This document shows, one piece after another, positions 7,754 through 23,070 of a stretch of 36,026 bases of DNA. Position numbers and translations under genes: made by a program. The notes under the pieces were generated by a model. That model did not search any database. It was not told where the DNA came from and worked only from the letters and a program-made list of their open reading frames with translations. Position 1 is the first letter of the stretch. Each line of letters opens with the position of its first letter. This stretch comes from an uncultured archaeon. GTDB taxonomy: Archaea; Asgardarchaeota; Thorarchaeia; Thorarchaeales; Thorarchaeaceae. The stretch spans positions 1 to 36,026 of the forward strand of contig CAZVZC010000019.1 of the NCBI GenBank assembly GCA_964631415.1, read 5' to 3'.

Positions 7754-8953
7754 CTACTCGGCCTGCATCCGCTCCCACTGGATGTCATATGCTCTGCTTG
7801 GGAATCTCCGTTGGACATCTGCTCTAGTTCTTGATAGGACCGCCTTCACAGGTTTGTGTCCGACAAGTTTCTCGACCTCCTTCGTTACGAAGCGAAAGAG
7901 CACATCGAACCCTTCGGCAATCGCGTCGGGCGTGATATCCCCCCTGACTGTGGCCGTGGTCAGAGAGCTCTTCATGCCTAGATCCATGTTCTCCTCCACG
8001 TTCACAAACGCAAGCCATGGGTGTTCGCCGAGGAGCGATTTCCGCACATCAGAGAACACGCGGTGTACAGTCTTGAATCCCACAATCTTCGCGTACATTC
8101 CAATCATCGTCTGCAAGGCCGATGTATGAAGAACAAGCGCGGCTTGGGAAGGTGAGACCCTCTCAACAGCCTTGTATCTAGTCAACAGAGCGATGTCATC
8201 CAGAAAGCGCTTCAAGTCTGACGTCTTCACTCTCTCAGCGGCGATCATGAGAGGTGTTTCACCGTCCAGCTCTGTAAGTGCCTTAGTGGTTTCTTCAGAA
8301 ACGCCGCTCACTCCTCCTCTTGTCCCCATAAGAGCAGTTGTCTGGTAGATGTCATCTGGCTTCACGGGGTTGGTCAGGAGAACGGCTTTCTCCCAGACGG
8401 CTTCCGCGACCCAGTTCAGGGCGACTTCGATGGGAACTTCAAGGAAGTCCGCCGCCTCTTTGACAGTACACAGTGGCGGTATCAACCTGAGAAGGGCCAC
8501 AACCTCTGCGTCCTTCGTGTAGAACTGCCAGTCCCGCTTCACCTGGATGATGGTGTCCGGATGAACTAGCTCCCAGACAAACTCCTCGATGACATCGCGG
8601 TCAAAACGTGTATGAACCGCAAGATCGAGGTCAACCCACCTTAGCACGTTGAACTGCTCCTCGAACTTAGAGATCGTCCTGCGTAGCTTCTCTCTGAGCT
8701 CGACCGTGTCCTTCACAGCAGAGAGCGCGCCCAGAGTCCAGTCTCCAAACTCGACGATTATCTTGTAGTCCGTCCCTTCGAAAGCCCTTGCCTGCGAAGT
8801 CACAGACCGTGTCGCTTCGTCAAAGAAAGAAGTCATCGCCACAACGAATGAGGAGAGGAGGTGAGGGTCGAAGATGGGCGGGTCGATGAAGTCATGATAG
8901 TACATACAGACCCCTGTTTCGCGTTTCACAAGATAGATGCTCTTGACTTCCAT
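7754..8953 (-). CDS. Longin-domain protein with tandem winged-helix domains (NPRL2/NPRL3-like architecture)
   Basis: N-terminal 'IYLVKRETGVCMY...DPHLLSSFVVAMTSF...YKIIVE' longin pattern, followed by two wHTH-like repeats (TVKEAADFLEVP; LDGETPLMIAAE) and a helical C-terminus. Confidence 0.65.
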   Translation of the reverse strand: MEVKSIYLVKRETGVCMYYHDFIDPPIFDPHLLSSFVVAMTSFFDEATRSVTSQARAFEGTDYKIIVEFGDWTLGALSAVKDTVELREKLRRTISKFEEQFNVLRWVDLDLAVHTRFDRDVIEEFVWELVHPDTIIQVKRDWQFYTKDAEVVALLRLIPPLCTVKEAADFLEVPIEVALNWVAEAVWEKAVLLTNPVKPDDIYQTTALMGTRGGVSGVSEETTKALTELDGETPLMIAAERVKTSDLKRFLDDIALLTRYKAVERVSPSQAALVLHTSALQTMIGMYAKIVGFKTVHRVFSDVRKSLLGEHPWLAFVNVEENMDLGMKSSLTTATVRGDITPDAIAEGFDVLFRFVTKEVEKLVGHKPVKAVLSRTRADVQRRFPSRAYDIQWERMQAE

Positions 8954-9143: not shown

Positions 9144-9755
9144 ATGAGTGTGCCAGAGGATTACACTATACGGTGTCCGGTCTGCAACGAGGGCAATCTG
9201 TCGGTCCGGTCTGTGCTTTACCCGGTACCATTCTTCAACCAGCTTGTCATGTTCATGATTGCATGCCCAGCATGCCACTTCACGCACAACGACGTATTTG
9301 CCGCAGAGCAGAGAAAGCCAAGCCGCTGGACTCTAAGGGTAGACCGCCCCGAGCTCCTCGACACTCGTGTGGTAAGATCGGGCTCTGGCACGATAAGGCT
9401 GCCCGACTTTGGAATTGACATCGAGCCCGGCCCTACTGCTGAGTCTTTCATAAGCAATGCCCAGGGTGTTCTGTTGCGTACACGCCCTGTCGTGGAGGCT
9501 GCAGTAAAGTTTGCAGACAGGAAGGAAGAGAAGAAGAGAGGTTGGCAGATCCTCTCACTCATCGACAAGGCAATGGAGGGCAGGTTGCCATTCACTCTTG
9601 TGATTGAAGACCCTGCTGGAGTAAGCGGCATACTCCCTGACGACATGACGCTGGTCAGGTATGAGGAACTCACAATCGAGGAGGCATCGATGCTGAAAGG
9701 TGCTCCAGCGTGGCTCGACGAGATAAGATCAGACTATGCCGAGCGTAAGGGCTAA
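9144..9755 (+). CDS. zpr1: ZPR1-type C4 zinc-finger protein
   Basis: CPVC...VPFF...CPACHF, VVRS..GTIRLP, IEPGP..ESFISN..GVL and TLVIEDPAGVS. Confidence 0.9.
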   Translation: MSVPEDYTIRCPVCNEGNLSVRSVLYPVPFFNQLVMFMIACPACHFTHNDVFAAEQRKPSRWTLRVDRPELLDTRVVRSGSGTIRLPDFGIDIEPGPTAESFISNAQGVLLRTRPVVEAAVKFADRKEEKKRGWQILSLIDKAMEGRLPFTLVIEDPAGVSGILPDDMTLVRYEELTIEEASMLKGAPAWLDEIRSDYAERKG

Positions 9756-12866: not shown

Positions 12867-13253
12867 CTAATAGCCCCACTCTTGACCCAGTCTTTGCCTG
12901 TACCAGCGTTGTCCGCGTTTCGTCAGTCGATATGCTCCCTCGAACTCCTCAATCAAGCCCATTCCCACCATGCTTTGGATCGCTCCAAAGAGCTTGTCCT
13001 CGGATGATGAAGTCGCTTCAAGGAGCTTTGGAAAGGTCATCTTGCCTTCCCGCTTCAAGTGTTGAGCGATATCGAACTTGCCTACAGCTCGGGTTTCGCT
13101 GCGGCTGATTATTTGGCCGCAGTTCGTACAGAGCAGGTCTCCCTTGAGGTCATCACGCGCGACCTCATTGCTGCCACAGACTGGGCAGGTCGAATGTGCG
13201 AATCTGAGACTGCGTCTAGCTGACATCTTAAACCCAGACTTCGGGCGCGCCAA
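12867..13253 (-). CDS. TFIIB-type zinc ribbon plus winged-helix protein
   Basis: CPVCGS...GDLLCTNCGQII, then wHTH-like 'MTFPKLLEAT...GMGLIEEFEGAYRLTKRG'. Confidence 0.75.
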   Translation of the reverse strand: MARPKSGFKMSARRSLRFAHSTCPVCGSNEVARDDLKGDLLCTNCGQIISRSETRAVGKFDIAQHLKREGKMTFPKLLEATSSSEDKLFGAIQSMVGMGLIEEFEGAYRLTKRGQRWYRQRLGQEWGY

Positions 13254-13283
13254 TCATTGATAAAACTAGCGAAGTGGGACTGA

Positions 13284-13823
13284 TTACTCGCCTGCTGTCT
13301 GGTCCGGCTCTTGTGATAAACGTTCGAAGAAACCCTCATAGTCGAGTTCGAAGGCCACACGCAACCCGGGTCTAACCCTCTTCTTGTTCCCATCAAGTTC
13401 AACGTAACGCTGCCTCGCCAATTCCCTAAGATCCTCTTGTACACTCCTTGTGGTCTTCTTTCGAAACTCCTTGACGCGGCTTAGAGGCACCCAACCTCCC
13501 TCTTGGTAGGCGAGGGTCATTACTACAAGCAGCGTGGCGGCAAGCCTGTCTGGAAGCTTGGACTCCCCTTCCTCAGGAAACCCTGTTCCTTTGGTGTCTA
13601 GGTAGAACACATGGCCAATTGGGTTGTGGCGGATTGTCATGCCCAAGGGTTGGAGGATCTCATCTAGCTCGGAGAGCCGCTTGAACAACACACCCCGTCC
13701 GATGTCTTCGGGCAGTCCGAGTGCGTCCAGCATGTCTTCCACACCTGCGCCAATCGGGTCACCCGACCTTGTGATGAGCCTCATGAGAACCGAGTACTCA
13801 TTCATTGTTACGCCGCCCAGCAT
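13284..13823 (-). CDS. KITE-family tandem winged-helix protein (ScpB/Nse1/Nse3-like)
   Basis: Two WH-like domains ('LSELDEILQPLGMTI...FYL'; 'LAATLLVV...VQEDLRELARQRYV'); lies downstream of SMC and kleisin. Alternative start at 13805. Confidence 0.65.
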   Translation of the reverse strand: MLGGVTMNEYSVLMRLITRSGDPIGAGVEDMLDALGLPEDIGRGVLFKRLSELDEILQPLGMTIRHNPIGHVFYLDTKGTGFPEEGESKLPDRLAATLLVVMTLAYQEGGWVPLSRVKEFRKKTTRSVQEDLRELARQRYVELDGNKKRVRPGLRVAFELDYEGFFERLSQEPDQTAGE

Positions 13824-13853
13824 GTGTCATACTGACCGAGCGCCATTATCGGT

Positions 13854-13860
13854 GTATAAA
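13854..13860 (-). promoter_or_regulatory. Putative TATA box of the KITE / Zn-ribbon unit
   Basis: TTTATAC on the minus strand, about 30 nt upstream of ATG 13823. Confidence 0.45.
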
Positions 13861-14309
13861 CTCTCTCGAAGGAATCCATCCTCAGCGCGGTTCACAAGAC
13901 GGTAACATCGTGTGACTCTGTCAAGTGACCCCCGAATGTGGCTTCGCGTTATATACTAAGCATGACCAATGTGAATTGTGGAATAATATGGCACACGAAA
14001 GCGACTCCCGAATGACAACTGTTGTGAAGAAGAGCAGAACTGTGAAGGTTCCTACCACTGAAGCAGTGGCCTATGCCTTCATGACTGTAGTGAGGTGAAT
14101 ACGGTGATTGCCCCAAAGATGAAGGTCGGAATTCGAAGACAGAGACGACCCGGACTCTTGGCCTTAGCTCCAGCGATTCCTTTTGCCTGCCTCTCAACGT
14201 GTCTGACTGAGATTGGGCCGTGTGAGGCGGGTCCTTGGGCTTCGATAAGGCGCTGACGGATATGTTCAGGTTGGATGTCCCTACCTCGACCCACAGGCTC
14301 CGATGGGCA

Positions 14310-14945
14310 TCACACGCGAATGAGCACTCTGTTCAGAGGGTCATATGACACGATGCCCCTAGAGATCAGCATCACTACAAACAAGAAGCGTTTCAAGAAC
14401 TGATCGAAGTCTTTGGTCGCCAAGAGGTCATCGATTCTGGTTTCTCGCTCCTTGGGCAGGGTGTGAGCGAATCTGTCCAGATCCTCGAGGAAGACTGAGT
14501 CTTCGGTGGCAAACGCAAAGCCTTCTGGGACGCCTGCAGAGCTTGGGGGAGGCGCTACAGGTTTCTGTCTTGAGTGAAGGTCGATTCCTCTCAAGATTCT
14601 GTCTAGCGAACGATTGAGTCCGGCCGGTTGTATGCTTGCCATGATCACCGGCTGCCTGTACCGTATCAGCCGTGCAAGTCGCATTGGCCCTATCGACTTC
14701 AGCCTGCTCACATAGAGCTCGGGAGCTGCCAAGATGCGCGCTAATTCCTGAACCCGTGTCACCTTGGTGCCGAGGATGTCATTCAGCATCTCGTCGATGT
14801 CCAGTCTACTGTCAATACGTGCCGCCAGCTGCTGCAGTTCTTTGTAAGCTTGAGTCAAGTGCAGCTCAAGGGGGTCCAGTTCGCCGCATCTGATATCATC
14901 GGCCATCTTGATCACACGTTGATTCAGTTCGCGAAGCTGGCTCAT
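14310..14945 (-). CDS. Kleisin-like protein (ScpA/Nse4-like)
   Basis: N-terminal helical 'GELDPLELHL' (compare ScpA DPW.ID), a Pro-rich linker, and a C-terminal WH 'FLKRFLFVVMLISRGIV'. Starts 16 bp after the SMC stop. Confidence 0.7.
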   Translation of the reverse strand: MSQLRELNQRVIKMADDIRCGELDPLELHLTQAYKELQQLAARIDSRLDIDEMLNDILGTKVTRVQELARILAAPELYVSRLKSIGPMRLARLIRYRQPVIMASIQPAGLNRSLDRILRGIDLHSRQKPVAPPPSSAGVPEGFAFATEDSVFLEDLDRFAHTLPKERETRIDDLLATKDFDQFLKRFLFVVMLISRGIVSYDPLNRVLIRV

Positions 14946-14961
14946 TCTGACAATCCCTCTC

Positions 14962-17900
14962 TCATTGCCCCGAAAAGCTTGGGCTTTCTATGATCACTGA
15001 AGGTTCGACTCCGCCCGGAGAGACGACGCCTATCCTTCTGTCTGCATGTCTGAGTAGGTGAGTGCTCTTGGCAGGAGTGAAGAGGATGAACTGGCTCCTT
15101 CGTGATGAATCGTATAGGAGCCTGCTCACAAGCTCAGTGTTTGTTGCATCAAGGAACGTGTCAATCTCGTCAAGCGCATAGACAGGACCAGGGTTGAACC
15201 GTTGGAGAGCAAGAATCAGTCCTATAGCTATCAGAGACCTCTCCCCTCCGGATCCGGCGCTGAGCTTGTCATAGCTCTCTCCTCGGATTCTGGATCTGAA
15301 ATCGACACCATACTCGCCGTCAATCAGTGACAGCTCGAAACGCACTTTTCCAGTGAACTGTACGCCACTCAGGACACCCTCAGTTTCTTTCTCAAGTTTT
15401 GAGAGAGCTTCCTTCATGCCTGTCAGATACTGCCCTCTGATACTCTTGACAGTAGACTCTGCTTCATCCAGCTCTTCTCTTAGATCGATCACCCGGCTCG
15501 AAAGCTCTGCCAGCCGTTCCTTAAGCTTCGACTCGGTGTGAGCGACGCTCTCTGACACATCCTGATACTCGTCCAGCAGATGACGAATGCGTATGAGTTC
15601 CGCCCTTGCGTCATCAAGAGGTCTCACTCTTTCGGGTCTTGCTTGCTCACGAGTTGCCTCACTTACTTGTTGGTGTTCATGCTCCATGTTGTCCAACTGT
15701 CTCTTTGCCTGGATGACCTGCAGTCTGCCGTTCTTGATTGTCAGGTTCAGTTCAGTGAGCTTCTCGCTCATGGACCGCATTGAGTTTCTAATCTCATTGA
15801 GTCTCTCCTTGAGAGCGGTCTGTGTCTTAGCCATCTGGTCCCGGCTGGGCCTCAGTTCGTCTACGGCAGCGAGAATGGTCGCGCCCTCACTCTTTGACTG
15901 CTTCAGGTCTTCCCGCACCTCTTCGAGCCGCTCTGACAACATGATGACGCTCTCATCCAGTTGCCGGAGTTCCTGCCTCTTGAGCTCCTCCTCCTTCTCG
16001 ATGCCGTGAAGGCTTGACTCCGCCTTCGAAACATCTCCCTGCAGACGTTTCGTCTTGATCTTCACAGCCGACAGCTGACCTGCCAGCCTGCTTCTTTCCG
16101 CCGGCTGTGTGCTGTCAAGTTTGCGCAGCTTCGTCTGAGCAATTCCTAGGCTTCGCTGCAGTTCCTTGAGCTGGTCATCCGTTTCTGCAACTCTCTCCTC
16201 AATCTGGGGTATGCTCTCTGAGAGTACTCTCTTTCTCTCCCATGTTCCGCTCGACCGTGTGACTTGGCTGAGCAAGTCCATCACCTGCTCTTTCTCCTTC
16301 TCAGCCTTCTCTATCTTGGTCATCAAGTCTGTGAGTCGTTTCCGAACGAGCGTCAGTTCCTTGTCTGCCTTTTCCAATCGAGTCTGAAGCGGTGCCGTGG
16401 AGATGATACCGGTTGGTTCACACTTGGGGTAACTAATCGTTACAGTCTGCTGAAACCGCGTGAGATAGCCGTCCATCGAGACAGCTGCCAGTCCTGTCTT
16501 TATCACCACGAGGGACGCCACCCTGCCGCTAGCCACGAGCACGACGTCCCCGAAGGCACGGCGCAGGAGTTCCCTTGCTGCTGGATCAGGCGCGACTCTG
16601 TCCCACAACCAGCCTTCTACTCCCTCTAGGTCCGGAAGCTCGTGTGGAGGCAGGGTGTCATCTTGTCCGACAAGGACTATCGGCGAAGGTGCAAGTGCTT
16701 TGTTCCTCAGCCTTACAAGTAGCGTGTAATCCGGATCGTCGGATGCAATGAATGCGAACGCCATGTTACCAGGGAGGACTGCTTCAATGGCGAGTGACAT
16801 GTCCGCTTCACCGGCTAATGATTCGAGAAGCGGTCCCACGACGGTCTTCATGCCATGTTCTGACACTGCATGCTTCAGTTCGATGACAGTCTGTGGGACT
16901 CGTTTCGAGGTTTCAGATATGCTGATTCTGATCTCCTCGGTTTCCTTCTGCAACTGCGCGGCAAGGCTTGTTTCTCTTACACGGGTTTCGTTCAGTGCTG
17001 TCAGTTCATTCTCCAGCTGGGACTTTCTCCTTGTCAGTTCCTTCTCGTCTGCCTTCTCCAAGACTGCCCAGACGTGTCCCCACTTGGTTTCAATGGTCTG
17101 AAGTTCTGCCTCTTCGACCTGAAGCCGTTCCTTGAGGCTCCTAAGCAGAACGTCCTTTCCTTGCGCCTCGGCCTGAAGGGCCCTGTAATCTCCGAAGGCC
17201 TCGGCTCTTTGAGCGTTCCAATCGGAAAAGGCTGCTAGCTGGTCCTCTATAGTGACTCGTTCTTTCTCAGTTTCATCAATCTCGTGTCTGAGAGTCCTGA
17301 GTTCCTCCATGGACTGCTCCTTGGCCTTTGACGCATGAGCAATATCCTCAGTCAACCTGTCCTTCTTGCGTTTCTCGGTGCTCACATGTTGTTCGAGCTG
17401 TCTGACCTCAGCCGCCTTCTTCTTAGTGTCATCTTCAAGCCTGAGCAGTCTGCGTTCCTCGTCGTCAATCCTTGCCTCGACGGCTCCAATCTCTCGCTGG
17501 ACATTTCCGAGTTGGCCCTCAGCTTCTGCACGCTGGTGCTCCGATTGCGCCATGCCTGCTTCCAAGGCTCTCGACTTGTCAAGGACCTGTCCTATTCCTG
17601 ACTCCATGCTCTCGATCTCGAGCTTGGTCTTTTCCATTCGAGTTACCAAGTCGTCGATAACTGCCCACTTGACCTCTAGGTCCAGTTCTCTCTCTGTCTT
17701 CTGCAGGCCCCTCTTCTTTTCAAGTCTGACGAGGTCATGCTGCAGCAGCCCGATCTCCCCCTCGACTGCTCGCGATTCTGCGATGGCCGACTCTAGGTTT
17801 CCTCGTATGTGGTGCACTTGGGTTTCTTGAAGCAGGATTCTATCCCTTGCGACATAGAGGCCAGTCCCTTCCTCTACGAGCTTTCTGACCTCAATGGGAT

Positions 17901-18330
17901 CCATCTCCCGCAACGAGTTGATCCGCTCCTGGGGCATGAACACGAGTGGATTGTCTGGTTCCAAGCCAAATGACTCAATCAGCGTCCTCAGCTCGGCCGC
18001 TTTCACATGCTTCCCATCAACGTAAGATCGGGGCACACCATCTCGATCTATTCTCCTGACCAGCTTGCGGTCCTGCCCGTCAGCACTCAGTATCAATTCG
18101 ACTTCTGCTGAGCTGGCTCCATGTCTGACGAAGTCACTCCATTTGGTATACCTGTTTTCTCGCTGGTTCGAACCGAGAGCAAACTTCATGGCATGAAATA
18201 TCGAGGTCTTGCCAGAGCCGTTTGGCCCGACGATAACAGTGAGCCCAGGGTCAAAGGCCACGGTCCCATCATAAAAGCTGAGGAAGTCCTTCAGCCGGAC
18301 CGATGCGATGCGAACCTGAGTCCCCGTCAT
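14962..18330 (-). CDS. smc: SMC ATPase, SMC5/6 / coalescin-related type
   Basis: Walker A GPNGSGKT, Q-loop FMPQE, two long coiled coils flanking a central hinge, signature GSGGERS, Walker B YALDEID, and QFILFTP. Confidence 0.9.
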   Translation of the reverse strand: MTGTQVRIASVRLKDFLSFYDGTVAFDPGLTVIVGPNGSGKTSIFHAMKFALGSNQRENRYTKWSDFVRHGASSAEVELILSADGQDRKLVRRIDRDGVPRSYVDGKHVKAAELRTLIESFGLEPDNPLVFMPQERINSLREMDPIEVRKLVEEGTGLYVARDRILLQETQVHHIRGNLESAIAESRAVEGEIGLLQHDLVRLEKKRGLQKTERELDLEVKWAVIDDLVTRMEKTKLEIESMESGIGQVLDKSRALEAGMAQSEHQRAEAEGQLGNVQREIGAVEARIDDEERRLLRLEDDTKKKAAEVRQLEQHVSTEKRKKDRLTEDIAHASKAKEQSMEELRTLRHEIDETEKERVTIEDQLAAFSDWNAQRAEAFGDYRALQAEAQGKDVLLRSLKERLQVEEAELQTIETKWGHVWAVLEKADEKELTRRKSQLENELTALNETRVRETSLAAQLQKETEEIRISISETSKRVPQTVIELKHAVSEHGMKTVVGPLLESLAGEADMSLAIEAVLPGNMAFAFIASDDPDYTLLVRLRNKALAPSPIVLVGQDDTLPPHELPDLEGVEGWLWDRVAPDPAARELLRRAFGDVVLVASGRVASLVVIKTGLAAVSMDGYLTRFQQTVTISYPKCEPTGIISTAPLQTRLEKADKELTLVRKRLTDLMTKIEKAEKEKEQVMDLLSQVTRSSGTWERKRVLSESIPQIEERVAETDDQLKELQRSLGIAQTKLRKLDSTQPAERSRLAGQLSAVKIKTKRLQGDVSKAESSLHGIEKEEELKRQELRQLDESVIMLSERLEEVREDLKQSKSEGATILAAVDELRPSRDQMAKTQTALKERLNEIRNSMRSMSEKLTELNLTIKNGRLQVIQAKRQLDNMEHEHQQVSEATREQARPERVRPLDDARAELIRIRHLLDEYQDVSESVAHTESKLKERLAELSSRVIDLREELDEAESTVKSIRGQYLTGMKEALSKLEKETEGVLSGVQFTGKVRFELSLIDGEYGVDFRSRIRGESYDKLSAGSGGERSLIAIGLILALQRFNPGPVYALDEIDTFLDATNTELVSRLLYDSSRRSQFILFTPAKSTHLLRHADRRIGVVSPGGVEPSVIIESPSFSGQ

Positions 18331-18346
18331 AACGGCACCTCAACGT

Positions 18347-19417
18347 TCAGCGTCCCATTATTCTCGCTAGCCTGTCATGGCTCTTCTTGGCCCTAAGAAG
18401 CCTTGTGAGCCTGTCCTCAGGCGTACCGCCCAGTAGGAAAGGATACTGAGTCAAGAAACTGCGTTCGTTAGAGGACAGCGGGAGTCCCGCGTTGAGTGAT
18501 TCTATGACTCGCTGTGTCTTTGCGAAGTCTTCTCCGACCGCCATCAAGTATAGCTGATCCAGAAAGCTATCCGGATAGACCTCGGCTACTCTTCCCACCT
18601 CTGGAGCTCTCTCACTCTCGAGTCTGTCTACTGTGGACCTGATAAACCCCTTCTTTCCTACAGGCAGCACTCCGCTCTGACGAATGAGCTGCTCAAGCTT
18701 TTCCGCGCTGACTTGCCCCTGACCTTCTGGCTGTGTCATCAACAGGCTGACCGCAAGATGCTTCACGTCTGTGAAACTCCAGCCCTCCGTCATCTCTGCT
18801 ACTACAGCTGTGTCAATGTCCGTTCTACCCTTCAGGACTTGCTCCAAGACCCTGACCCGATCCGTGCTAATGGCTGATTCGAACAGGTATGCCCTATCGA
18901 ACACCGAGAGTATCCCTGGGTCAACTCTCGTCGGAAACGTAGAGGACGCGACAACCAATACATCATCCTTGTCCCAGCTTACATGCTCAAGTTCGCTCTG
19001 CAGGACTGCTGCTTCGGGCGTGTCCTTGGGCCCCAGCATCTCCAATCTTTCGAGGAACACGAGGCTCGGAGCGTTTCTGCGTGCAAATTCGACAATGATC
19101 CTGATTGACTCAATAGTGAGCGCGGAGTTGCCCAGAATCTCCGCCAGCCTGAATCGAATGATCTTGATGGGCATCTCAATCGCGACGTGATTGACGAATG
19201 CCTCGAAGTCAGTACCCAGACTGCCAATCAGGACCACTCGCCCTCCGAACTCAATTGGCCTCTCCTCCAGTTCGGGCTTTTGGCTGGCTTGCCTTCTGAT
19301 GACAGCGAGAAAGTCGGCGGCTCTCTCTCTGACAGAGGATTGGCTGATTCTGTTTGCCAGTATCTCCTCGGGCATCACAAGCTGTAGGGTTTCTGCGTGG
19401 CTTTCCTCGTCACCCAT
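18347..19417 (-). CDS. Classical-clade AAA+ (Cdc48/Vps4/PAN-like) homolog with inactivated ATPase motifs
   Basis: FARRNAPSLVFL, VLVVASST.P..VDPGIL..FDR and AEMTEGWSFTDV match the AAA fold. Walker A is GSLGTDFE and Walker B is FLERLE. Start probably ATG 19417 (or 19465), not 19570. Confidence 0.75.
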   Translation of the reverse strand: MGDEESHAETLQLVMPEEILANRISQSSVRERAADFLAVIRRQASQKPELEERPIEFGGRVVLIGSLGTDFEAFVNHVAIEMPIKIIRFRLAEILGNSALTIESIRIIVEFARRNAPSLVFLERLEMLGPKDTPEAAVLQSELEHVSWDKDDVLVVASSTFPTRVDPGILSVFDRAYLFESAISTDRVRVLEQVLKGRTDIDTAVVAEMTEGWSFTDVKHLAVSLLMTQPEGQGQVSAEKLEQLIRQSGVLPVGKKGFIRSTVDRLESERAPEVGRVAEVYPDSFLDQLYLMAVGEDFAKTQRVIESLNAGLPLSSNERSFLTQYPFLLGGTPEDRLTRLLRAKKSHDRLARIMGR

Positions 19418-19597
19418 TTTGGGACCCCTCTTTGCGGCTGCAGTGAGGCAGCCTTGGGAAGCCATATTACCTATTCGGAGTGACAGTGATTCCGCGCCGT
19501 TCGAAGGTGCCCAACCTAGGCGCTCATATGCCATGGCGCACAAATGGCCGCAGCCAAAAGCTGCTTTCAAACAAGAGCGAGAAAGGAGACAACCCCG

Positions 19598-21310
19598 ATG
19601 AGCAGCCCCAGTGACATGCTACGTGAGCAGGTCTGGAAAACAATAACCACCGTTGAGAGCAGAGGCCTGTTCGTACACTCTGCCGATATGCCAGTGAGGT
19701 TCGTGTCTGCCAGAGGCGATAAGGAGCACACCAAGACCACAAGGGTTCCACTAATAGTTGGCACGTGCGTGCTGAACGCCCTCGTCCCAAGATCTGCCAT
19801 GCTGCTTGTAGGGGGTCACGGCGGAGGCAAAACAACCCTTGTCAAACTGCTCGGACGCATGATGACAGGCAGGAGCATAGAGGAGATAGAGGATGGAATT
19901 CTAAGGGGTCACCCTCAGCTCACAGAAGAGAAGATGGTGGCGACGCTTCGCCCCGGACCGCTCATGAAGGAAGGCCTGGAAGTCGTGGTCTGGAGGAGAT
20001 TCGTGACCGGCTTCTGGAAGATTATCGATGAGGTCAACAGGCTCACACCATACGCACAGAACATACTGCTTTCAATGCTGGCAGAGGGCGAACTGAAGTA
20101 CTATGACGAAGTCAAGAGGTGCGACGAGTACTGCCTGTACGCCACAATGAACCCATCAGACCCCGGCACCTTCGAAATGCCGGTCCCGTTCATGGACCGT
20201 TTTGGAATCGCTGTGCCAATCACAATGCCGACAATAAACGATCTGGAACTCATTCTTTCCTCTCGTGACGAACGTTTGTTCGGCTATGACGAGCTGTGGC
20301 AGGTTCCAGCAATCCTCGGCGAAGAGGATCTGCTGACCATATGGAGCATTGTCGACAAGATGCCTGTTTCGTCCAGGGCATCAGAGTTCATACGTGCTCT
20401 TGTTCGTGAGTTCGATGCATGCATCCGTACGGACAAGAGCCAGGCACAAGACATGACTGTCGAGTCAGGCCTTTGCGAGGGATGTCATTTCAACACTGCG
20501 AAGAGCATATGCAACAAGGTGGTCATCCCTCTAAGCGTGAGAGCGGCCAAGGACCTGAACAGATACTGCAAGGCTGCCGCGTGGCTAGTTGGGGCTTCCG
20601 AGGTCGATGTTGAGACTGTGAAGTCGATAGCCCCGCTAGTGCTCTGGCACCGCACACGACTGTCACGCAGTGAGCTCGAACGATCACCCTACTACGGCGA
20701 CCGTTTCGCCTTCACTCAAGAGATTGTCGAGCTGGCCTCAACACGGTTTGCGCAGAGGGATGCTGCTCTCAGTCTTATGGAGAAGCTCAAGCAAGGAGAT
20801 GCACCAAAGACTGCTCTCGAGGAGCTCAAAGAGATGGGGAAGAGCGACTTGCTTGTCAGAGTCGACTATGCTGTATTCGCCAAGGAACTGACGAAGTCAG
20901 CCTATGTAGACATGGTCCGCAGCATGGAGAAGGCAATGAAGAACCGTGACGTCAAGGAGCTAGTGAAGATTGAGGAACGTCTTCTCACCGAAACCGACTT
21001 CCCGAACCGAAGCATGCTGCTTAACCGGGTTTCCGAGGCGCTTCACAGGCTGACGCTATCGCAGTTCACTTTGACCTTCGAACAGTGGCAGGAGCTTTGG
21101 AGCACCATCAGCATGCGTTTTCCAAAGATGACGCCCATCTTGAAGGAGACTCTCAAACCCCCGAAGAGGAAGGTCGTGCGGACCGATGGCCTCATGCTAG
21201 TAGTGTATGTCACTGGAGACTCGCCAGAGTCAGCAGTATTCCTTGAGGTTTCGGGCGGCAGTGAAGCGATTAGTCTCTGTGAGGAGATCAAAGGGCATTT
21301 GAAGAAGTAG
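19598..21310 (+). CDS. MoxR-family AAA+ ATPase
   Basis: Walker A GGHGGGKT, Walker B IIDEVNRL, sensor ATMNP and FMDRF. AGGAG RBS before ATG 19598. Confidence 0.85.
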   Translation: MSSPSDMLREQVWKTITTVESRGLFVHSADMPVRFVSARGDKEHTKTTRVPLIVGTCVLNALVPRSAMLLVGGHGGGKTTLVKLLGRMMTGRSIEEIEDGILRGHPQLTEEKMVATLRPGPLMKEGLEVVVWRRFVTGFWKIIDEVNRLTPYAQNILLSMLAEGELKYYDEVKRCDEYCLYATMNPSDPGTFEMPVPFMDRFGIAVPITMPTINDLELILSSRDERLFGYDELWQVPAILGEEDLLTIWSIVDKMPVSSRASEFIRALVREFDACIRTDKSQAQDMTVESGLCEGCHFNTAKSICNKVVIPLSVRAAKDLNRYCKAAAWLVGASEVDVETVKSIAPLVLWHRTRLSRSELERSPYYGDRFAFTQEIVELASTRFAQRDAALSLMEKLKQGDAPKTALEELKEMGKSDLLVRVDYAVFAKELTKSAYVDMVRSMEKAMKNRDVKELVKIEERLLTETDFPNRSMLLNRVSEALHRLTLSQFTLTFEQWQELWSTISMRFPKMTPILKETLKPPKRKVVRTDGLMLVVYVTGDSPESAVFLEVSGGSEAISLCEEIKGHLKK

Positions 21311-21318
21311 GTGGTCCT

Positions 21319-23070
21319 GTGGGAATGGGTTCTGAGTATCCACCAAGGGCTGTCGGGCTGATGGAGGTCGCGGAGAGGGCTTGGATTCAAGCTCTTGGAG
21401 ACTTCTACCACCCTCCTCTTCCTGAACCGAAGGTGGAGTATGAGGATGACAAGACTAGCTACTTCTACATCGACCCCATAAGCTGGACCGTGCACCTGAA
21501 CACGGCAGGAGTTCCTCTCCATCTCGACATGAATGGTGCAGAGCCCTTTCTTCGGTCTATCTGTCAGCATGAGATTCAGCACTACTTAGTATGTCCATTT
21601 GATGGCGTGGCCCACGGCATGATGTTTGCCGCCGCCAGAATTCATGTGAATGATCCAACTGCCATGTTTGTCTGCAATCTCTTTGCAGACCTCGTTGTCG
21701 ACTCCAGTCTACTGAAGAGAGTGCCCTCGCTGACTCATGACAGAATCATGACCTCTCTGCACGACTCTTCAATGAGGACGTCGGAGCACAGTCGCCTTTG
21801 GAGCCTGATTGTGGCCTGCTACCGTCAGATGTGGGGGTTTCCCATTCCTCCAATGGTCGAGGTAGATGAGCCAACACTGACTGCTGCCCAGGCAATTGTG
21901 ACCGTGACTCATGAGTGCCTTGATGATGAGAGTCGATGGCCAAAGGCGACAAAAGAGATTGCTAGGATTCTTACCGAGTGGCAGCCTGAGGAGAAGGGTC
22001 AGCTGGCAGGCTGTGATGAGCCAGACTCATCGTCCAAGAATGGTCAGCTACTTGGGAGTCCAGTCCTTGTTCCCCTTGATGTGGATGCGATTATGGGGAG
22101 CCCGGTAGAAATCCGAAACGGGGATCGTGCAAAGCGTTGTATGAAGTCGGCGTCTGAACACGACACTGAAGAAGAAATGGGACGACTGGCAATCGAGGCA
22201 GACCAGAGAGGGGGCGGCCTCTCGGACTTACAGGGAGTGTACCTTGTTGCTGGGGTAGGATATGATCCCTACAAGTGGGTGCAGTTCTGGTATCGAGCTA
22301 AGGCAAAGGGCCTGCTGCGCTCAGAGATTCGCGAGCGGACTGTTTCAGGTGCCACGCCGCTCGCATCTCAGGTCTGGCGGCTTGGCGACCCGATCGAGGA
22401 GTTGGATCTTGTGCAGTCCCTTCAGGCCTTCCCAGTGATTGTTCCGAACATGTCAACAAGGAAATGGGTCACAACCCTCATGCATGGAACGGAAACTCTG
22501 TACTCTCCTCCTGACCTTCTCATCGTCATTGACTCAAGCGGCTCGATGACATACTCCATAACATCAAAGAGGGTTTCAGGTCCATACCACACTGCACTCG
22601 TCTCCGCATTTGCAGCCATCGATCTTGCGCTCAGATATGGCAAGCGAGTTGCGGCAATCAACTTCTCGGACGGCATTCATCAGTGTGATTGGACCAACGA
22701 TAGGAGCACAGCAGAGAGCGTCTTGCTTCAGTACCAGGGCGGCGGGACAGTCGCACCTGTGAACGCCATCGTCGAGAAATGTCGACGAGCTCAAGCCGAT
22801 GTCATGGTGCTAATGGTCACTGACGCCGAGATTCACAACTGGGAGAATCTGCTTGGGTCAGTCAGAGAGATGATCAGTCACGGACACAAGTTCTTCATGT
22901 TCCGTATCGGATCGAGAGAGAGAGCTCTGGATGAGGCAGGCCAGAGTCTGTGCAAAGCCGGAGCGATAGTCATTCCTGTCGGTTCTGCGAAGGACCTGCC
23001 CGGACTTGTGATCCGAGAGGCAAAGCGAGTCTACGTCACTGGGCAGCACAGCCCTGCGACAGCGCCATGA
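21319..23070 (+). CDS. HEXXH metallopeptidase-like plus von Willebrand A domain protein (MoxR partner)
   Basis: HEIQH followed by N...D; C-terminal MIDAS DSSGS...GGT...TDAE. Starts 8 bp after the MoxR stop. Confidence 0.85.
   Translation: MGMGSEYPPRAVGLMEVAERAWIQALGDFYHPPLPEPKVEYEDDKTSYFYIDPISWTVHLNTAGVPLHLDMNGAEPFLRSICQHEIQHYLVCPFDGVAHGMMFAAARIHVNDPTAMFVCNLFADLVVDSSLLKRVPSLTHDRIMTSLHDSSMRTSEHSRLWSLIVACYRQMWGFPIPPMVEVDEPTLTAAQAIVTVTHECLDDESRWPKATKEIARILTEWQPEEKGQLAGCDEPDSSSKNGQLLGSPVLVPLDVDAIMGSPVEIRNGDRAKRCMKSASEHDTEEEMGRLAIEADQRGGGLSDLQGVYLVAGVGYDPYKWVQFWYRAKAKGLLRSEIRERTVSGATPLASQVWRLGDPIEELDLVQSLQAFPVIVPNMSTRKWVTTLMHGTETLYSPPDLLIVIDSSGSMTYSITSKRVSGPYHTALVSAFAAIDLALRYGKRVAAINFSDGIHQCDWTNDRSTAESVLLQYQGGGTVAPVNAIVEKCRRAQADVMVLMVTDAEIHNWENLLGSVREMISHGHKFFMFRIGSRERALDEAGQSLCKAGAIVIPVGSAKDLPGLVIREAKRVYVTGQHSPATAP

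Follow-up and report, generated by a model that had tools for sequence, protein, structure and literature searches.

The loading, regulation and release of SMC (structural maintenance of chromosomes) rings form a central question of chromosome biology. We know of no archaeal forerunners of the eukaryotic SMC regulators (Nse5/6, Scc2/4, Wapl, separase and Cdc48). Second SMC-kleisin-kite operons in TACK and Asgard archaea have been published as 'SMC5/6-related' (PMC8665677; van Hooff, Raas, Tromer & Eme, bioRxiv 10.1101/2024.01.07.573240); the 'SMC5/6-related' archaeal SMCs were defined by Yoshinaga & Inagaki 2021 (PMC8665677). In the published trees, the second SMCs of the Thor, Baldr and Loki lineages fall in the SMC5/6-related clade, and the Thorarchaeia kite is called Nse1/3-related. 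Supplementary Table 3 of van Hooff et al. (10.1101/2024.01.07.573240) includes a genome from Thorarchaeia for which SMCs of the SMC5/6-related type and a kite related to Nse1/3 are given, but in which an Nse4-related kleisin was not detected. Nse4-related counts are 0 for the Thor, Baldr and Prometheoarchaeum genomes, and the Asgard kleisin is mostly undetected in these two studies. An operon of this kind, together with the genes around it, is described here from the window, a stretch of 36,026 nucleotides representing contig C19 of a 2.16-Mb archaeal metagenome-assembled genome (85% complete); named relatives place this genome in Thorarchaeota, an Asgard lineage.

The window probably contains the version of the Asgard second SMC complex found in Thorarchaeia, with a pseudo-AAA gene in the lead and a genomic link to a MoxR-vWA gene pair. 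This confidence covers the claims on composition and linkage only; gene content, motifs, fold classes, gene order and distribution are the observed part. The arrangement supports an SMC module of four genes, namely pseudo-AAA, SMC, kleisin and KITE, with an accessory MoxR/vWA pair. The SMC-kleisin-KITE core is already published and is not new; for the pseudo-AAA gene and the MoxR/vWA link, no earlier description was found. No AAA, MoxR or vWA partner of these operons is mentioned in PMC8665677 or by van Hooff et al., and full-text literature searches found no paper linking a MoxR or AAA protein to these SMC operons.

A first-pass annotation, made from the sequence alone, had proposed seven genes here. 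All seven are present where it placed them, apart from small start-codon corrections, and every motif that it quoted is found in the translations. Start codons were placed by ortholog alignment; four have moved relative to the list of open reading frames (ORFs). The features are as follows.

12867..13226, minus strand: Zn-ribbon/winged helix-turn-helix (wHTH) protein, about 119 amino acids from ATG 13226 (ORF list 12867-13253; TTG 13253 is an alternative start)
13284..13805, minus strand: KITE protein, 173 amino acids from M7 (ORF list 13284-13823, 179 amino acids)
13806..14309: kleisin-KITE gap, non-coding, about 500 bp
14310..14945, minus strand: candidate kleisin, 211 amino acids
14962..18330, minus strand: second SMC ATPase, 1122 amino acids
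18347..19417, minus strand: pseudo-AAA+ protein, 356 amino acids from M52 (ORF list 18347-19570)
19418..19597: divergent intergenic region, 180 bp, from pseudo-AAA to MoxR
19598..21310, plus strand: MoxR-type AAA+ protein, about 570 amino acids from M19 (ORF list 19544-21310)
21319..23070, plus strand: HExxH-vWA protein, about 580 amino acids

The lead gene of the SMC operon encodes an AAA-like protein in which GSLGTDFE replaces the P-loop and LERLE replaces Walker B. Its Pfam match to PF00004 is weak; with the family profile, VCP and Cdc48 are recovered at E 1e-41. At the P-loop position, where GxxGxGK[ST] is expected, GxxGTD or worse is found in 20/20 aligned orthologs, and the DE pair of Walker B is missing. 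The catalytic forms of Walker A and Walker B that mark classical-clade AAA+ proteins are therefore absent, with Walker B degenerate, despite clear fold homology. Judged by these motifs and profiles, the protein is a conserved pseudo-enzyme derived from the Cdc48/VCP family.

The best conserved part of the pseudo-AAA protein is a C-terminal helical domain of about 90 amino acids. This domain forms 110 clusters among 1.84 billion representative proteins and is always C-terminal. Among 301 Asgard genomes, it is found in 136, with one copy each, and is confined to seven families (f1, f2, f7, f8, f9, f24 and f29); none of the approximately 20 other families contains it. The KITE family (147/301 genomes) is found in the same seven families, with weaker matches also in f19, f20 and f28.

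The pseudo-AAA gene is located directly upstream of the SMC gene in 80/80 named Asgard loci recovered with SMC (Thor, Baldr, Loki, Hod and Hermod labels), and likewise in genomes of family f24 or Harpocratesius type. The two genes are separated by 0-30 bp or overlap; in the window, the gap is 16 bp. An inactive AAA+ tightly linked to SMC had been proposed for this locus alone, and both properties extend to its orthologs. Two apparent pseudo-AAA-SMC fusions in Loki-type genomes (frames of 1589 and 1563 amino acids; G180:C4 and G099:C48) were rejected, as a TGA stop separates the genes.

Freyarchaeum deiterrae and Helarchaeota contain a homologous PF00004 AAA gene at the same position. In these homologues, Walker A is intact (GRSGTGKT and GPSGNGKT) while Walker B is altered, and the C-terminal domain can be aligned with that of pseudo-AAA. 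Because of these homologues, an AAA gene at the operon head is taken as ancient in Asgard archaea, with loss of the P-loop in the Thor, Loki and Baldr lineages. The second SMC of F. deiterrae, which follows the AAA gene with intact Walker A, is just 835 amino acids long and has much shorter coiled coils (L150:6570-9077).

Loss of the catalytic motifs could also mean that the AAA-like gene is a functionless, decaying relic, or a separate gene that shares the promoter; truncation of the AAA core to 271-315 amino acids in Baldrarchaeum and f7 would fit this explanation. However, the reading frame is intact in all 136 genomes of the seven families, and the C-terminal domain still gives E 1e-30 to 1e-40 across lineages whose SMC proteins are only about 25% identical. 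The invariant, closely spaced position upstream of SMC and the Freyarchaeum and Helarchaeota homologues at the same place also argue against it. A relic is consequently very unlikely.

The MoxR-vWA pair is found beside SMC genes in four arrangements. Firstly, in Thorarchaeia it is divergent from the pseudo-AAA operon; this includes a sister family in which SMC is just 27% identical. Secondly, Baldrarchaeum and family f7 have a co-directional six-gene operon (MoxR, vWA, pseudo-AAA, SMC, kleisin, KITE) in which stop and start codons overlap. Thirdly, kleisin, KITE, MoxR and vWA are located in this order on one contig of family f20, so that the pair is downstream of KITE. Fourthly, MoxR-vWA is convergent to canonical Smc-ScpB in three Loki-type genera and in Harpocratesius. 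In several Lokiarchaeia (L125, L129, L140, L146, L147 and L149), ScpB comes immediately after canonical Smc without an intervening ScpA, and the MoxR-vWA genes converge on this Smc-ScpB pair.

The vWA family is present in 143/301 Asgard genomes. Its family-level distribution is nearly that of pseudo-AAA and KITE, even where the genes are unlinked; in one closed genome, vWA is 480 kb from the SMC operon. The four arrangements support a gene-order link between MoxR-vWA and the operon that goes beyond simple shared descent.

A number of observations weigh against such a link. Five Loki-type genomes (93-100% complete) keep pseudo-AAA and KITE without vWA and MoxR; a positive control was run for this result. 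MoxR-vWA has no SMC gene nearby in 14 of 20 sampled loci of Loki type. Related MoxR-vWA pairs are present in families f17 and f20, where in most cases neither pseudo-AAA nor KITE is detectable. Within Thorarchaeia, flanking metabolic genes are also syntenic, which makes family-level linkage weak evidence, and related genomes are non-independent samples. Because of these last two points, linkage was weighed by rearrangements and not by counts.

The first four of these observations would suit an unrelated chaperone pair, which serves metal-cofactor insertion or some other client and is a neighbour by chance; only pseudo-AAA, SMC, kleisin and KITE would then belong together. Known MoxR-vWA systems such as CbbQO, NorQD and RavA-ViaA have very diverse clients, which is also in keeping with this explanation. 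It accounts poorly for four different gene orders beside SMC genes, including six-gene operons with overlapping codons, and for the nearly shared family-level distribution. In addition, the vWA family comprises just 263 clusters in 5.8 billion proteins, and its named members all come from Asgard archaea. Chance neighbourhood is thus considered unlikely.

The preferred reading is a linked but accessory pair. Because five near-complete Loki-type genomes keep the SMC operon without it, MoxR-vWA is dispensable for the SMC complex and is lost as a unit. The first-pass proposal that the pair is part of the system is borne out as a recurrent link in gene order; an obligatory partnership is not. Joint loss of pseudo-AAA, KITE and vWA in some Thorarchaeia was considered as evidence for a functional link and rejected, since the genes are adjacent and one deletion would remove all of them.

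The SMC protein has the features of its family: two ABC-type head halves with their motifs, and a hinge. Pfam matches are SMC_N (residues 8-1104, 139.5 bits) and SMC_hinge (495-602, 30.7 bits), and the translation contains Walker A GPNGSGKT, signature SGGERS and Walker B LDEID. It scores 262 bits on TIGR02169, the SMC equivalog model, for which the cut-off is 729. The same genome contains a canonical operon of overlapping genes on contig C1 (L153:3099-7959, minus strand) for Smc (1196 amino acids), ScpA (239 amino acids) and ScpB (185 amino acids). The window SMC is therefore a second, divergent paralog, and the set to which it belongs is distinct from canonical Smc-ScpAB. A co-located paralogous SMC-kleisin-kite set in addition to a canonical one, as found here, is also what defines an SMC5/6-related operon. 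Since there is one SMC gene and one KITE gene, the second SMC, and likewise KITE, presumably forms a homodimer.

The KITE protein (179 amino acids in the ORF list) has no Pfam match, including to ScpB (PF04079). Its AlphaFold2 model has a pLDDT of 82, and each of the 12 Foldseek matches with E <= 1e-3 is to a KITE protein or to an entry of a KITE complex. ScpB ranks first (E 3.8e-6, TM 0.54-0.58), followed by MAGE-G1/Nse3, Nse1-Nse3-Nse4, JetB and MukE; the MAGE/Nse matches have E values of 5e-5 to 1e-3 and TM of 0.33-0.45. The structural model thus confirms a predicted KITE (tandem winged-helix) fold.

The candidate kleisin gene is located between SMC and KITE in every locus examined. In the window, the 211-amino-acid protein does not match the ScpA Pfam model. 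Its family profile has weak matches at the C-terminus to four ScpA C-terminal winged-helix entries (E 0.04-0.4). In the AlphaFold2 model (pLDDT 78), a disordered linker connects a helical N-domain to a C-terminal winged helix. Top Foldseek ranks are Smc5/6 holo-complex chains, condensin entries, JetABC, ScpA-C and Scc1-C, none of which reaches E 1e-3; the C-terminal winged helix aligns with ScpA-C at TM 0.65-0.66 relative to the target (probability 0.8-0.9). Kleisin is the likeliest identity of this candidate, on weak evidence. Of the three core subunit classes originally reported, SMC is secured by Pfam and motifs and KITE by fold, while kleisin is the likeliest assignment only.

The first-pass annotation also described motifs that are SMC5/6-like rather than of Smc-ScpAB type. 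The present comparisons do not show this. In a search of the PDB with the SMC family profile, SMC3 (235 bits) and SMC2 (226 bits) outscore SMC5 (179 bits) and SMC6 (163 bits); these are profile scores, not a tree, and they do not by themselves show an SMC5/6 affinity. The KITE protein fits ScpB at least as well as Nse1/Nse3. A relative shift of the second SMC toward SMC5/6 is nevertheless suggested by the profiles, because the canonical Smc paralog has no SMC5/6 match at E 1e-30.

The MoxR protein belongs to the MoxR class, with Pfam matches to AAA_5 (2.7e-11) and AAA_lid_2 (1.4e-7). Its Walker A, Walker B, arginine and sensor motifs (GGHGGGKT, IIDE, DRFG, SVRA) do not vary among 16 orthologs that represent 8 families, and an active ATPase is predicted. 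An insertion after the AAA core contains C276, C294, C297, H298 and C306, which are invariant in the same 16 orthologs; this Cys/His cluster is probably a zinc site. The protein also has a long C-terminal extension. To our knowledge, a Cys/His cluster of this kind has not been described in MoxR proteins.

The vWA protein contains HEIQH and DSSGSM. H84, E85 and H88 are invariant in 12 orthologs, as are D405, S407, S409, T477 and D502, which make up a complete metal ion-dependent adhesion site (MIDAS) motif. VWA_2 is matched in 12/12 orthologs and VWA in 7/12 (best E 6.8e-9), while the window protein alone falls below the Pfam cut-off. Profile searches with the vWA family found no Pfam or PDB sequence match for the HExxH N-terminal domain, a putative zincin-like peptidase. 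The Atlas gives a weak lead to DUF2201_N metallopeptidases (0.87).

Two variants of this gene pair were observed in relatives. One genome (G022) has an additional, incomplete copy of the vWA domain about 3.5 kb downstream of the full vWA gene (L028:17629-18177); the identity of this copy to residues 391-572 is 46%. In a genome of the sister family of Thorarchaeaceae (G025), an opposite-strand gene of 1164 amino acids is inserted between MoxR and vWA (L030:12696-16190, the same as L086).

Wadjet and eukaryotic Smc5/6 restrict foreign circular DNA, and some conflict systems contain MoxR-vWA modules. A defence role against extrachromosomal DNA, with HExxH/vWA and MoxR as effector or sensor in place of JetD, would build on these precedents. 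It would also fit the presence of MoxR-vWA in some close relatives and its absence from others, and the weak similarity of the SMC to LmuB-type defence ATPases. On the other hand, the cluster contains no nuclease; no JetD/Toprim gene is found in the cluster or its flanks. PADLOC has no match for kleisin, KITE, MoxR or vWA, and the SMC matches only a generic head, far more weakly than it matches the SMC family. In more than 15 genera of Thorarchaeia, the cluster is single-copy and keeps its chromosomal position next to housekeeping genes. Its divergence follows relatedness, and all of this points to vertical inheritance and not to a mobile defence island. Because of the missing nuclease, the missing PADLOC match and the vertical-looking inheritance at a fixed position, defence is improbable. 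The early view that this is not a canonical Wadjet agrees with these results, which include the lack of any PADLOC Jet match.

If the system is instead an SMC complex with helper proteins, the pseudo-AAA protein is inferred to associate physically with it. Its role would be that of a regulator or adaptor subunit without catalytic activity, which contacts the SMC complex by way of its C-terminal domain. In this it would resemble loader or regulator subunits (e.g. Nse5/6) by function, though not by descent. The MoxR-vWA pair may be an accessory ATP-driven remodeller whose MIDAS domain docks on a component of the SMC complex and which helps to load, release or dismantle the ring. That the pair acts on the SMC complex in this way is a tentative proposal. 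Proteolysis of kleisin or of a partner by the HExxH site would be possible.

In a stronger version, pseudo-AAA, MoxR and HExxH/vWA would work together as a machine dedicated to opening, unloading or proteolytically dismantling SMC rings (e.g. by kleisin cleavage or extraction), with pseudo-AAA as a stoichiometric fourth subunit. Such a machine is less likely still, and the loader, scaffold and kleisin-processing roles put forward earlier are speculation. If it existed, regulated release of SMC rings (by separase- or Wapl-like logic or Cdc48-type extraction) would have a prokaryotic precedent in the archaea most closely related to eukaryotes.

The Zn-ribbon/wHTH protein narrowly misses the Pfam cut-off for the TFIIB-type Zn ribbon (PF08271, E 1.1e-6), and both of its CxxC pairs are invariant in 8 orthologs. 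Its gene follows KITE in every Thorarchaeia locus that reaches that far, even when both genes are displaced or inverted. It was not seen in the examined loci of other Asgard families. Its proposed membership of the system therefore holds beside KITE in Thorarchaeia families f1 and f2, which belong to the same order as the window and where alone it is seen; it may be a regulator or a lineage-specific subunit.

Spacing within the cluster agrees only in part with the initial description. The 16-bp gaps between pseudo-AAA and SMC and between SMC and kleisin are both present, and the 180-bp upstream region shared by the divergent genes is exact with ortholog-corrected starts. In contrast, the 30-bp gap between KITE and Zn-ribbon requires the TTG start and is 57 bp with the ATG start. 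Direct reading of the sequence revealed no strong TATA box in the 180-bp divergent region.

The kleisin and KITE genes are not tightly coupled, because 504 bp separates them if the corrected KITE start is used, and 486 bp if the start in the ORF list is used. A TTTATA box is located in this gap about 35 nt upstream of the KITE start, as read directly from the sequence; the gap therefore probably holds a separate promoter for KITE and Zn-ribbon. In the nearest relative, the gap is just 25 bp. In many Thorarchaeia genomes, 2-8 kb of unrelated genes, including a major facilitator superfamily (MFS) transporter and oxidoreductases, lie between kleisin and KITE.

This junction is an insertion hot spot in Thorarchaeia, with inserts of 0.4-8 kb (e.g. 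L036:14070-15410 and L075:14057-21473). Among the inserted genes are those for an MFS transporter (on the opposite strand), a flavin oxidoreductase and a metallo-beta-lactamase-fold protein; consequently, KITE and Zn-ribbon often form a transcription unit of their own. The gap in the window was checked for remains of the MFS gene, and none were found.

The cluster is flanked by a membrane proton pyrophosphatase and a GltA-like oxidoreductase pair. Upstream are genes for a 399-amino-acid protein with no Pfam match (7754-8953) and a ZPR1-type zinc-finger protein (9144-9755); both are syntenic in some Thorarchaeia relatives (L022).

An archaeal SMC complex held to be a cousin of Smc5/6 thus has, across Asgard lineages, a conserved fourth gene for a Cdc48-derived pseudo-ATPase and a recurrent genomic tie to a MoxR/vWA module. 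If the partner proteins act on the ring, they offer a tractable set of small proteins for biochemistry and a new element in scenarios for the origin of eukaryotic SMC regulation. If they do not, pseudo-AAA is still to be added to the published subunit inventory of these operons. The findings are of interest to specialists in SMC biology and eukaryogenesis, as they point to putative helper machinery for SMC rings.

Among known systems, the MoxR-vWA chaperone pairs (CbbQ-CbbO, NorQ-NorD, RavA-ViaA and CoxD-CoxE, with the logic of BchI-BchD) share with the window an active MoxR-class AAA+ beside a MIDAS vWA protein. Unlike these pairs, the window vWA protein carries an N-terminal HExxH domain, and its MoxR has the Cys/His cluster and the C-terminal extension. 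The genomic partner of the window pair is an SMC operon; no SMC client for the MoxR-vWA class is reported in the searched literature.

Wadjet (JetABCD) and MksBEFG resemble the window in having an SMC-kleisin-KITE set additional to the housekeeping condensin, and JetB and JetA are among the structural matches. The window is set apart from Wadjet by the absence of JetD/Toprim and of PADLOC Jet matches, and by its conserved chromosomal position and apparently vertical inheritance. Eukaryotic Smc5/6 (Smc5, Smc6, Nse4, Nse1, Nse3, Nse2 and Nse5/6) is likewise a KITE-type complex, and both systems have extra genes or regulatory subunits; the window SMC profile scores 163-179 bits on Smc5/Smc6. In contrast to the eukaryotic complex, the window has one SMC gene, one KITE gene and no RING or SUMO-ligase domain, and its pseudo-AAA protein is unrelated to the alpha-solenoid Nse5/6.

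Smc-ScpA-ScpB has the same layout of SMC, short kleisin and tandem-winged-helix kite. The window KITE superposes best on ScpB, and the C-terminus of its kleisin resembles ScpA-C. However, the window set is a separate paralog, and its KITE and kleisin miss the ScpB and ScpA Pfam models. Like the window, the archaeal SMC5/6-related operons encode a further SMC and a kleisin and kite to go with it, in genomes that also have canonical Smc-ScpAB. While no AAA, MoxR or vWA partner is mentioned for these operons as published, the window operon has a pseudo-AAA gene in the lead and a link to MoxR-vWA.

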